From an uncultured Mollicutes bacterium (GTDB lineage: Bacteria > Bacillota_I > Bacilli_A > RFN20 > CAG-826): a stretch of DNA of 64,000 nt. Made by a program: the position numbers and the translations under genes. A model generated the notes under the pieces. The model did no database searches. It had not been told where the DNA came from and worked only from the letters and a program-made list of their open reading frames with translations. Within the stretch, counting starts at the first letter, position 1. Each line of letters begins with the position of its first letter. Shown here one piece after another: positions 2,621 through 5,602 of the stretch. The stretch covers positions 64,715 through 128,714 of the forward strand of contig UQFY01000003.1 in assembly GCA_900540385.1 (NCBI GenBank), in the 5' to 3' direction.

Positions 2621-2925
2621 AGTCTATTTTCCTTATATTAACCAAGAAAGTCCTTGGTAAGATAGAATACCCCAATTAGAGAATTACTGGAAGAGCGTTT
2701 ATCCTTCAAAACAAGCGTTCTTGGGATTTTATTAGAGTTAGAAACATAATCCGTATTCTTAAGTTTTTTGCTTGGATTGGTTCAAGAGCAGACAAAAGAA
2801 GAGCCATTCTTATGATAGCTTGATAAAAGAAAAAACCATCGTTTTACGTTTTCCCCCTTTTGATTCTGCGTTTTTATCTATCAACCCATACTAGGGGATG
2901 AGAAGTACTCAAAAAATCATTTTCG

Positions 2926-2983
2926 TTATTCTTCCAAAAAATCAATTATTCTTCCATTTTTTTGAATATTCTTCCAAAAGATT
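2926..2983. repeat. 58-bp iteron block, copy 1 (three ATTCTTCCA motifs spaced exactly 20 bp apart)
   Basis: ttattcttccaaaaaatcaattattcttccatttttttgaatattcttccaaaagatt is identical to 4477-4534. ATTCTTCCA starts at 2928, 2948 and 2968. Confidence 0.95.
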
Positions 2984-3021
2984 CTGGAAGATTGTCAAAA
3001 TATTCCTAAAATACCGCTTTT

Positions 3022-4446
3022 TTAATTATTTGTCGCGAAATAGCGTTTGCCTTTCGTTTTTTTGCCATTCGTTTTAATAAGATTCATTAGTAAGAGTTCG
3101 GAAATTATCAGAGCGGTTGAAGAGTTCTTCATTCCAATCATTCTAGAAATTTCTTCTGTAGAAGCACCTTCTGGATGTGCGACCAAGTAGGACAATATTG
3201 TCTTTTTCTCATTATAGTGTGGCGTTTCTTGGTTTAATTGAGTGAAATTAATTATAAGAATCGTCCTTTTTGGGTTGTTTTCAGTTGTTAGACTTGGTGT
3301 TAAAAAACCATAAGAACGGCACATTTCAAAAATGCTTGGCACGCCAGAGCCTGCTCTGTCGGACACTTGAAGAAATCTGAAATAATTCATGATATTTTTG
3401 TTAAGAGGGTTCGTAACTCCGCCAGAAATGGCTTGTTTAACTCCAACAGGAATATCGCCGGAGTTAAGAAAAGTAATATTTTCATATGTTTTCTTAATAA
3501 CGATTCCAGGTAGCGAAGAAAAATCACAATTTGTGATGGCATTGACTAGTCCCTCTATCACGGAACGTTGAATATCCTTCCCATTGATGTTACTAATTCC
3601 ATCAGTCCTAAAAGGATTCGGCAATTTTTCAATCAGATTTTTACGAACCAAGCAGAAAAAGTTGAATAAATTAGCGTTGAAATTATTTTCATCCGAAACG
3701 ATTCTTCTATCCCATCTTGTTTTTCCAGAGAAGTTTTCTTGGTAATCTAGAAAATAATTCGGGCAAATTTGAGAAATATCACTTTGATTTCCAAAAAATA
3801 GGACGGCACCATTTTTTAGCACCTCTCTTCCGTTGTTTTTTATCAAAACACCCGCTCGCAAAAGAAAATCGTGGTCATTTAGATTTTTAAAAACATTATC
3901 CGGATTGATTTCATTCATTTGTTTCCGAAATTCCTTTATGGATTCTTGATCGAGGTTTGTCTCATCTAAATCAAGGGAGTTTGGAAGCATATCAAAGCCA
4001 ACCCCTTTCTTCTTTATAAGGAGAGAAGCGATCTCATCTTCCGACATCAGGAAGTCTCCTTCCCCGATTCTGATATAAGACTTCGACAAATTTCCATCGA
4101 GGTAAACGGGTTTTGCTTCAAGAGGAGCTTCTTTAACGGCAAAGCGAAGAACCTTTTTCCCATTGAGGTTTATTATTTGTACGTCTTGATCGGAAATACA
4201 GCAATAACTAGCCTTGCTTTTTGAATGGAGGGTGGAAATGAGCGCTTTCTTTTGTTCTTCGGGATTAGAGACGCCAATTATATCGTTTGTTTTTCCTTCT
4301 TTGATGCCTAAATAAATGATCCCGCCTTTTGTATTAGAAAAAGAAGAATACGTTTCATAAAGGCTATCAGGAATCTTTTTGCCTGATTCCTTTAGTTCTA
4401 TTTGAAGGCCTTCTTTTAACGTTTTTAGATAATTCTCATTTTCCAT
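3022..4446 (-). CDS. AlbA_2 (Schlafen-like) / HATPase_c_4 / C-terminal wHTH putative DNA-binding regulator (often annotated 'RecG-like' or 'putative transcriptional regulator')
   Basis: N-terminal LQIELKESGKKIP...NTKGGIIYLGIKE is an AlbA_2 signature. GSGVPSIFEMCRSYGF is an ATPase-like motif. The C-terminal wHTH reads ILSYLVAHPEGASTEEISRMIG. I prefer the start at M8 (4446) because a GAGGAG SD lies 9 nt upstream. The ORF extends to 4467. Confidence 0.75.
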   Translation of the reverse strand: MENENYLKTLKEGLQIELKESGKKIPDSLYETYSSFSNTKGGIIYLGIKEGKTNDIIGVSNPEEQKKALISTLHSKSKASYCCISDQDVQIINLNGKKVLRFAVKEAPLEAKPVYLDGNLSKSYIRIGEGDFLMSEDEIASLLIKKKGVGFDMLPNSLDLDETNLDQESIKEFRKQMNEINPDNVFKNLNDHDFLLRAGVLIKNNGREVLKNGAVLFFGNQSDISQICPNYFLDYQENFSGKTRWDRRIVSDENNFNANLFNFFCLVRKNLIEKLPNPFRTDGISNINGKDIQRSVIEGLVNAITNCDFSSLPGIVIKKTYENITFLNSGDIPVGVKQAISGGVTNPLNKNIMNYFRFLQVSDRAGSGVPSIFEMCRSYGFLTPSLTTENNPKRTILIINFTQLNQETPHYNEKKTILSYLVAHPEGASTEEISRMIGMKNSSTALIISELLLMNLIKTNGKKTKGKRYFATNN

Positions 4447-4468
4447 CGAATCTTTCTCCTCTGCCATA

Positions 4469-4496
4469 AGTATAATTTATTCTTCCAAAAAATCAA
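4469..4496 (-). promoter_or_regulatory. Candidate sigma-A promoter of the AlbA_2 gene, overlapping an iteron
   Basis: On the minus strand: TTGATT (-35, plus 4491-4496), a 16-nt spacer containing TGGAAGAATA, then TATACT (-10, plus 4469-4474). The predicted TSS falls just upstream of the GAGGAG SD. Confidence 0.4.
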
Positions 4497-4534
4497 TTAT
4501 TCTTCCATTTTTTTGAATATTCTTCCAAAAGATT
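4477..4534. repeat. 58-bp iteron block, copy 2 (perfect direct repeat of 2926-2983)
   Basis: All 58 positions are identical to copy 1, which lies 1551 bp away. ATTCTTCCA starts at 4479, 4499 and 4519. Confidence 0.95.
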
Positions 4535-4588
4535 ACAAAAGAATATGTGAATTCACATTAAAAAACACTCTATGGAGAAGAGAAAAAA

Positions 4589-5602
4589 TTATTTGGTTTT
4601 GCTCAAAAAGCTTTGAAGTCTTTCGCTTTGAGGGTGATTGATGACCTTTTTTGGATCCCCGGACTCAACGATAAGACCTTTGTCCATAAAGACGACTTTG
4701 TTGGCCACGTTTTTAGCGAAGTTCATCTCATGGGTGACGACAATCATCGTTTTTCCTTCGCTAGCAAGCTTCTTCATTACGTTTAAAACCTCTTCGACCA
4801 TTTCCGGATCAAGAGCACTTGTTGGCTCATCAAAAAGGATGATTTCAGGGTTGATCGCTAAGGCTCTCGCGATAGCAACACGTTGTTTTTGTCCACCGCT
4901 TAATTCGTTTACACGATAATTCATACGGTCTTGCATGTTCACAAGAGTTAGATATTTAATAGCAACTTCTTTAGCTTCGGCTTGTTTTCGTTTCAATATC
5001 AATTTCTGAGCAAGAATGACGTTATCTAAAACGTTCATGTTGTTAAACAAATTAAAAGATTGGAAGACCATGGTGATCTTGCTTCTTAATTCGTTAAGTT
5101 CTTTGTTATTCGGGATAATTGGATGATCGTTTTTAATAGAAGCTTCGTATTCTTCATTGTTAAGATAATCCAGTTTGTTGATAGGTTTTTTTCTAATCTC
5201 ATTGTATGCTTTTTTAGCTTCTTTGATGAGTTTCTTTAAGCCTTTGTCCGATTTATCTTCAATGTATTTATTTTGATAAATAGCTAAGTTATCTTCCGTT
5301 TCAATCAGCTTTTCTTTGTATTTTTCTTTATCTTCTTTGTATCGAGCGTAATCGATGAAATCATCTTTGCATTTAGAGATGTTGAAATAGGTCTTTCCCT
5401 TGTAAATAAGGCTTCCACGAGTTGGCTCTTCAAGAAGGTTTATGCAGCGAAGAAAAGTAGACTTTCCACTTCCGCTAGGCCCAATAATCGCGATAACATC
5501 CCCTTTATAGACATCTAAAGAGATATCTTTGAGGATTTTGCTCGTATCAAAGAATTTGGCGATATTTTTTATGCTGAGAATTAATTCTTTATTGTTTTCC
5601 AT
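4589..5602 (-). CDS. Polar amino-acid ABC transporter ATP-binding protein (GlnQ/HisP type) with a large charged insertion
   Basis: Walker [11 protein letters not shown]-loop MVFQSFNLF, signature [15 protein letters not shown], Walker [12 protein letters not shown]. About 85 extra Lys/Glu-rich residues lie between Walker A and the Q-loop. Confidence 0.9.

Follow-up and report, generated by a model that had tools for sequence, protein, structure and literature searches.

The stretch analyzed here, 64,000 nucleotides of the genome of an uncultured Mollicutes bacterium (C3:64715-128714 of a 1.71-Mb assembly with 39 contigs and 38% G+C, designated G000; the stretch as a whole is referred to as the window), carries on its minus strand a gene for a Schlafen-type protein, annotated as an open reading frame (ORF) of 481 amino acids at 3022-4467. 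Two blocks of short repeats, or iterons, flank the gene: an upstream block (4477-4534, minus strand) at its predicted promoter, and a downstream block (2926-2983, minus strand) whose gene-proximal end (2983) is 38 bp past the stop codon (3022-3024). The blocks have the same orientation and are identical in 58 of 58 bases, with a start-to-start distance of 1551 bp. The downstream block is 305 bp before the start (2620) of a gene for an Endonuclease_1 lipoprotein. A first, sequence-only reading of the window had described this pair of repeats, including their distance to what it called a surface nuclease, and had suggested either an autoregulatory or looping operator array for the encoded DNA-binding protein or a cassette delimited by recombination sites.

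Each block contains the word TATTCTTCCA three times at an exact 20-bp phase, together with an inverted copy. ATTCTTCCA starts at 2928, 2948, and 2968 in the downstream block and at 4479, 4499, and 4519 in the upstream one; on the gene strand the unit is a 12-bp iteron, TGGAAGAATAWT, three to a block. The inverted copy near the downstream block (TGGAAGATTG at 2985-2994, an 8/10 match; cTGGAAGATTG over 2984-2994) lies between the stop codon and the block, and with the first iteron forms an inverted pair of the form 9-bp/N8/9-bp. Its counterpart at the distal end of the upstream block is weaker (CAAAAGAATA at 4536-4545, 7/10). The spacing and the downstream inverted copy agree with the sequence-only reading, but the further ATTCTT sites that it placed in 2680-2850 do not rise above background: there is one iteron-like match (two or fewer mismatches) in the 305 bp of 2621-2925, compared to 3.3 per kb in the window generally. 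Nor are extra iteron-like sites within the coding region above background. Between the upstream block and the stop of the neighboring ABC ATPase gene there is also a perfect 14-bp palindrome (ATGTGAATTCACAT, 4545-4558), whose symmetry is not preserved in genomes G057, G059, and G080.

When the whole assembly was searched for the 58-mer, allowing up to 12 mismatches, only the two copies at this locus were found. The word TATTCTTCCA occurs 27 times in the genome, six of them in the two blocks, and no further 20-bp-phased cluster of it was found genome-wide. Among 78 genomes of the genus, a two-iteron pattern is present in nine and absent from 69; it is always at a gene of this kind, the exceptions being a remnant (G042) and a single solo copy (G057), both discussed below, and a reversed control pattern had no matches in the same genomes. 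That the 58-mer belongs to a dispersed family unrelated to the gene, of the repetitive extragenic palindrome (REP) or miniature inverted-repeat transposable element (MITE) type, had been raised as a possible objection to any link with the gene; with two copies in the genome and no other phased cluster, this explanation is refuted by these searches and retains a negligible probability. An assembly artifact is excluded as well, because the layout recurs when the same species was assembled independently (NCBI and ENA records) and in four related genomes of the genus, at 95-97% protein identity.

The predicted promoter is of the sigma-70 type (4469-4496, minus strand), with a -35 box TTGATT (4496-4491), a 16-nt spacer, and a -10 box TATACT (4474-4469). 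The upstream block overlaps it, as had been proposed: the third, proximal iteron fills the spacer between the -35 and -10 boxes, the second overlaps the -35 box, and the first lies farther upstream with the inverted copy. Orthologues show this arrangement as well. A promoter scan agrees that the downstream block has no -10 box. Only 1 nt separates the upstream -10 box from the annotated ATG (4467), and a second ATG (M8, 4446-4444) has a ribosome-binding site, GAGGAG. Because the -10 box crowds the annotated start and the orthologues begin at the second position, the true start is probably M8 at 4446; the ORF would then be over-extended by seven codons and the product would have 474 amino acids.

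Three domains can be recognized in this protein. An SLFN_AlbA_2 match (PF04326; 57.9 bits vs. a Pfam cut-off of 25.3) covers residues 19-139, and is followed by a GHKL-type ATPase domain (HATPase_c_4, PF13749; 29.0 bits vs. a cut-off of 26). The motif Ex4(E/D)xK, defined as the Schlafen catalytic motif in one recent paper (Nat Microbiol 2026, PMC13056530), is intact as E19-GLQI-E24-L-K26. In a 42-sequence alignment, E24 and K26 are invariant and E19 is at least 90% conserved, and the GHKL residues E305, N309, G337, G349, G350, G373, and G375 are invariant. An AlphaFold2 model made from this alignment (predicted local distance difference test, pLDDT, 88; predicted template-modeling score, pTM, 0.76) has a C-terminal winged helix, with helices at 418-430, 437-444, and 448-460 and a beta wing at 464-478, in accord with the AlbA_2/Schlafen and winged-helix assignment made earlier from the translation. 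Helix 448-460 is modeled as a MarR/ArsR-like recognition helix, with S449 at its N-terminus as the putative specificity residue.

By Foldseek, the best whole-chain match to the model is PDB 3LMM (DIP2311 of Corynebacterium diphtheriae; E 2e-18), at a sequence identity of only 13-15%. The N-terminal domain matches the N-domains of SLFN11, SLFN13, and SLFN14 and PDB 2KYY, the N-terminal domain of a “RecG-related” protein (25% identity); the middle part matches histidine-kinase CA domains, and the tail MarR/ArsR-type winged helices (MepR, HcaR, NolR). Matches of the C-terminal part to the Csa3/CasR helix-turn-helix (HTH) are weak, and a PDB sequence search found no full-length relative. 3LMM and 2KYY both come from structural genomics, and neither PDB title mentions a function, a ligand, or a complex with DNA.

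On the basis of this architecture and the conserved Schlafen motif, the protein can be assigned to a class described in 2026 as “pSlfn HisKinase-HTH” (PMC13056530) or “Schlatpase-HTH” (bioRxiv 10.64898/2026.05.29.728809), with which it agrees in every sequence-level feature: the three-part architecture, the intact Ex4(E/D)xK, the conserved GHKL motifs, and neighbors of defense type. In the accessible parts of these papers, the class is the commonest among prokaryotic Schlafens, at 19.2% (PMC13056530), and over 90% of Schlatpase proteins carry an HTH (bioRxiv 10.64898/2026.05.29.728809); four other architectures were tested, including a HisKinase fusion, but not the HisKinase-HTH class (PMC13056530). 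The same parts of the two papers contain no named DNA target for the HTH, consistent with the sequence-only reading's remark that the targets of these proteins are essentially unknown, and no statement on how the nuclease is restrained. Neither in them nor in literature searches was a published description of the iteron arrays found. The locus differs from what is described there in that a target can be proposed, namely phased iterons both at the promoter of the protein's own gene and past its end, together with a rule connecting their sequence to a Ser or Thr in the protein.

The protein is also a candidate phage-defense RNase, an activity and role suggested by the catalytic motif and by gene neighborhood; ABC-3C/Lamassu-like genes adjoin the orthologues in G057 and G008. 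In G000 itself, the region to the left of the window (C3:44000-64700) is dense in genes of defense-island type, as judged by eye from their translations. They include several P-loop/AAA-type ATPases, a Fic-like protein, and a two-component system, beside a DUF4417/C80-like/Zn-ribbon trio at the window start.

Orthologous loci were collected from the genus and from a wider set of public genomes, giving 22 with protein identities of 37-97%. All 22 have two to five iterons of the form NNNN-AGAWTAWT at a 20-bp phase (21-bp in L083); the arrays end 19-41 bp before the start codon and are followed by a TATAAT-like box. For example, G008 (79% identity) has four copies of TATTCTTCCA directly upstream of the start, G015 and G014 (54-58%) have four of TAATCTTTCG upstream of it, and G019, G041, and G044 (45-47%) have three or four iterons in the same place.

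From locus to locus, AGAWTAWT, which makes up the 3' two-thirds of the iteron, is near-invariant, as is the protein's wing sequence, T-N-G-K-K-T-K-G (SNGRKTKG in L073). The first four bases of the iteron vary (TGGA, CGAA, CGGA, CGAG, CGGC, or TTAG), and so does the residue that follows K-N at the beginning of the recognition helix (S449 in K-N-S-S-T here). It is Ser in 11 of 11 loci with TGGA, Thr in 10 of 10 with a CG-type beginning, and Pro in the one with TTAG. Mapped on a maximum-likelihood tree, the TGGA label requires three changes by parsimony, at least two of them forced by well-supported (starred) branches. A Ser clade that includes G019 lies outside a grade of Thr loci, another Ser clade is nested within that grade, and the sisters L067 (Ser/TGGA) and L069 (Thr/CGGA), with support of 100/99, differ in both characters.

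It is this co-variation that points most strongly to binding of the flanking iterons by the encoded winged helix. Because the first base of the iteron switches together with the recognition-helix residue, the arrays can be read as the gene's own operator, and it is very probable that they are the protein's own sites. Since the array has no other copy in the genome, the winged helix would be one without a visible regulon. The operator-array interpretation offered by the sequence-only reading thus has strong comparative support, in the array on every orthologue promoter, the private arrays of paralogues (described below), and the co-variation of iteron word and helix residue.

The locus is proposed to be a self-contained, self-repressing gene for a Schlafen RNase-GHKL ATPase-winged helix protein, with the 12-bp iterons, their 20-bp phase, and one distal inverted copy as private sites of the winged helix. 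Three protomers, or one HTH from each of three dimers, would sit on roughly one face of the DNA. Upstream, counted from the predicted start site, they would occupy about -65 to -14, covering the -35 box and the spacer and so shutting off the gene's own promoter. As occupied sites would occlude RNA polymerase, negative autoregulation is the likely sign of control, and for an RNase that may be toxic, tight and cooperative control of this kind would be fitting.

The genome has seven paralogues of the gene, five of them with different private arrays, at a phase of 10-12 bp. Their repeated words are GAACCAAT (five copies), ATCTAGAA (seven), TTTGAAGTA (five), GTAGACTAA (four), and TGAAGTA (four). 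Arrays of four or more copies are found in only 13 of 1189 upstream regions genome-wide, and five of these 13 belong to Schlafen paralogues. The largest upstream array in the genome is elsewhere: four tandem ~34-bp repeats (TTTGCTTTTTATTTGCATTTTAGACATTTCTTAT) directly upstream of a gene for a 452-amino acid P-loop ATPase (C7:67871-69229), AAA_14/DUF4143-like from a look at its sequence, which may represent another family with a private operator array. At orthologous locus L078, three copies of a ~32-bp repeat beginning CGTTTTGTCCGTTTTTCCAACA lie 15-110 bp past the Schlafen stop codon, and are unrelated to the iterons of that gene.

Similar arrangements are known from two better-studied kinds of systems, although the locus is a member of neither family. 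The lambda CI repressor binds cooperatively to the tripartite operators OL and OR, regulates its own synthesis, and bridges the two over a long range. In lambda as here, two three-site arrays flank the regulator gene, 1.5-2.4 kb apart, but here one word recurs in direct orientation every 20 bp, no promoter coincides with the downstream array, the protein is a Schlafen-GHKL fusion rather than a CI-type repressor, and looping is a proposal. RepA of pPS10, RepE of F, and pi of R6K are winged-helix proteins that read direct iterons about two helical turns apart, and in iteron plasmids an inverted copy near the initiator's own promoter gives autorepression. The archaeal activator EarA, with its 6-bp TACATA repeats, was considered as a possible relative; no link to it is claimed, the literature consulted saying just “winged HTH”.

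The likeness to iteron plasmids, with direct iterons and an inverted operator next to a gene for a winged-helix protein, raises the question of whether the unit could be a plasmid-like replicon, with the iterons as origin and the protein as a Rep-type initiator repressing itself through the inverted repeat. A 1581-bp contig with a terminal overlap, described below, would fit such a form. However, the protein has SLFN_AlbA_2 and GHKL domains in place of any Rep-family domain, there is no sign of replication, and the chromosomal context is the same in at least four independent assemblies. Many orthogonal pairs of paralogue and array also distinguish these genes from plasmid iterons, and eight such genes with different arrays (this one and the paralogues, five of seven with arrays) are implausible as replicons in one 1.7-Mb genome. 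A replicon is very improbable.

The second block is less widespread than the first. It is present at 11 of the 22 loci (the window, L059-L063, L067, L069, and L071-L073), starting 18-45 bp past the stop codon, always in the same orientation, with the inverted copy included and no -10. All 11 are in one 13-row clade with support of 94/100 (below the star threshold of the tree), the other two members, L064 and L068, being without a full second block. Because they fall together in this way, the second block can be read as having had one origin and as having been retained in proteins that are as little as ~59% identical. The motif variant of a given genome recurs in its own downstream block, and the two blocks of a locus are 78-100% identical, spacers included. 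Since lineage-specific substitutions in the spacers are common to both blocks in G000, G059, and L059, and G057 has a mixture, the blocks evolve in concert; this indicates repeated gene conversion between them, in both directions, which keeps the arrays near-identical. Gene conversion is evidence of recombination only, not of bridging by a protein.

There is also a difference in transcription termination signals, which were scored by folding energy. In five of the one-block orthologues the stop codon is followed by a strong terminator hairpin, at -14 to -20 kcal/mol, and in a sixth by a weak one, at -8.4. The same scan found no terminator at two-block loci other than the hairpin that the inverted pair of the block can form; in L071/L072 this hairpin has a T-rich tail and reaches -18.9 kcal/mol. 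The downstream block replaces an intrinsic terminator. It is proposed to be a second, promoter-less docking array past the stop codon, bound by the same protein and acting in one of two ways: by bridging to the upstream array in a 1.5-kb loop over the gene, as CI does on OL and OR, or as a protein roadblock standing in for the absent terminator. Two arrays for one protein, 1551 bp apart, are at a loop-compatible distance, and the layout is kept in 11 loci. The odds seem slightly in favor of the second array being functional.

The unit as a whole has moved between genomes. Positions 2850-4675 of the window, made up of 76 bp of left flank, the downstream block, the gene, the upstream block, and 141 bp of right flank, are ~95% identical to G057 and G059 over a 1,826-bp alignment, and the genes next to it in those genomes are unrelated or just 72-80% identical. 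The left flank (2761-2925, minus strand) is common to G057 and G059 from 2850 on, and to the G057 solo block from 2795 on. The right flank (4535-4675, minus strand; 93-95% identity in G057 and G059) consists of 54 bp of intergenic DNA and the last 87 bp of the ABC ATPase ORF (4589-5602). Orthologues of this ATPase (E ≤ 1e-100) were found only in G000, G080, and G042, with none in G057 or G059. Because the right flank brings along the end of a gene for which no such orthologue was found in these genomes, the unit is concluded to have reached them horizontally from a G000-like source. In the pairs L071/L072, L066/L069, and L059/L060, the DNA in common is likewise the gene plus 40-165 bp past the blocks. 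The 1.8-kb unit is mobile between defense-island contexts, with no recombinase traveling along, and because inter-genome homology overruns the blocks by 40-165 bp, these are internal to the transferred unit rather than its ends.

This bears on the recombination-cassette interpretation of the sequence-only reading, of which one part stands: the unit does move between genomes, and the blocks do recombine, as seen in gene conversion and in the solo copy in G057. In its most specific form, the blocks would be attachment (att) sites of a tyrosine recombinase, the core formed by the last iteron and the inverted copy (ATTCTTCCA-N8-TGGAAGAWT), the other iterons accessory, and the gene a cassette. Its 9-bp inverted arms and 8-bp spacer resemble cores of the lox/FRT type. 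The solo copy in G057, a left flank-block-right flank arrangement, is beside a tyrosine integrase, 45 bp upstream of the Phage_integrase gene. At L053 in the same genome (G057:C12, 6251-13087), this integrase and ABC-3C/Lamassu-like genes (DUF2326/LmuB-like and CTD11) are the cargo of a 6.3-kb island between 271-bp direct repeats, each beginning with the block and continuing with the right flank and 69 bp more. Translated on the minus strand, 2761-2871 of the window yields a 37-residue peptide with 62% identity to residues 5-41 of the integrase ORF in G057, so that this segment looks like the remnant of an integrase-bearing island, and inserts in G000 and G042 share the boundary ...AAAGATT|. 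When the idea was followed via G057, though, the integrase proved unique to that genome among the 78, the best G000 homologue having 29% identity, and at none of the other orthologous loci (at least 37% identity) does it lie within 2.5 kb. The iteron word co-varies with the Schlafen helix and not with any recombinase, one-block orthologues and paralogues have promoter arrays only, and, as blocks that are overrun by homology (G000/G057, L071/L072, L066/L069) are not termini, the cassette interpretation fails on this part. That the blocks are att sites is improbable.

A less demanding alternative is that the upstream array is the real operator and the downstream block a non-functional scar, left when a circle with gene and array inserted by a single crossover (Campbell-type) into a resident solo array, or by tandem duplication and deletion, with the identity of the blocks due to recent origin or to passive gene conversion. 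The G057 solo copy would then be the expected pop-out or empty-site form, and identity that extends to the spacers is in keeping with this. In G042, which has no orthologue, two unrelated genes have replaced the AlbA_2 gene between remnants of the arrays (L056; G042:C11, 6160-11320); they encode an 847-amino acid protein without a Pfam match and a 670-amino acid Big_2 protein, and are flanked by an 18-bp direct repeat, TTATTCTTCCAAAAGATT. The ABC ATPase gene being confined to G000, G080, and G042, and the cassette in G042 replaced, there is no clean empty site at this position for comparison. Among Logan assemblies, one contig (L147, run ERR10200780) is 1581 bp long, or 1551 + 30, with a 30-bp terminal overlap, and contains the gene and one full block only. 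It could be a circle or a tandem form, but a low-coverage graph that lacks one flank edge would explain it equally well, and seven samples have a 1553-bp unitig, as expected between two 58-bp repeats at k = 31. The confinement of the two-block loci to one clade also speaks against a scar, in that the layout persists to ~59% identity though direct repeats are deletion-prone. The downstream block of G008 is ~89% identical to that of G000, compared to 75% for coding DNA, and blocks with 40-165 bp of shared sequence beyond them are not junctions. A scar is on balance unlikely, if the least unlikely of the alternatives considered here.

Several points weigh against a self-regulated gene with two functional arrays. 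In Thr-class arrays a few iterons have T as their first base (tgaa, in L069, L071, and L072), so the Ser/Thr rule holds per array and not per site. Clostridia homologues at ~30% identity have no phased arrays by the same detector, and one of them, L086, has a palindrome in place of an array; the array rule in this form is therefore subfamily-specific and not family-wide. The tie between protein and DNA is drawn from co-variation and association, and from sequence alone the protein may be an activator instead of a repressor. For the downstream block, the next gene varies by genome (the nuclease here, DegV, KAP NTPase, or Lgt elsewhere), so that no dedicated second target is visible. Recombination alone would suffice to make the blocks near-identical, with no need for a function of the downstream copy, and direct repeats flanking a gene are also expected from single-crossover insertion or duplication. 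With these taken into account, a self-regulated Schlafen gene with its own docking arrays is still the favored explanation as a whole, with a probability of roughly 0.7.

A more speculative extension, which is rather doubtful at present, is that the arrays are a private DNA dock, where the Schlafen RNase would be kept inactive as an oligomer bound to the arrays, and perhaps handcuffed, across its own gene. As no other place in the genome has its sites, the sole job of the winged helix would be self-control. Stripping from the DNA or a change in ATP state may then release active RNase; phage nucleases, DNA mimics, or changes in supercoiling may be the triggers. Synapsis of the arrays by the protein may also explain both the constant gene conversion and an occasional pop-out of the 1551-bp gene-plus-array unit.

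With or without this extension, the self-regulated gene supplies a putative first concrete, testable DNA target for the commonest bacterial Schlafen class: a target in the form of 12-bp iterons at 20-bp phase, a geometry with arrays on the promoter and just past the stop codon, and a recognition rule of one residue and one base, Ser449 with T and Thr with C. If true, a family now labeled “transcriptional regulator/RecG-like” would become a set of orthogonal protein-operator pairs, and there would be a way to study the silencing of a toxic immune RNase.

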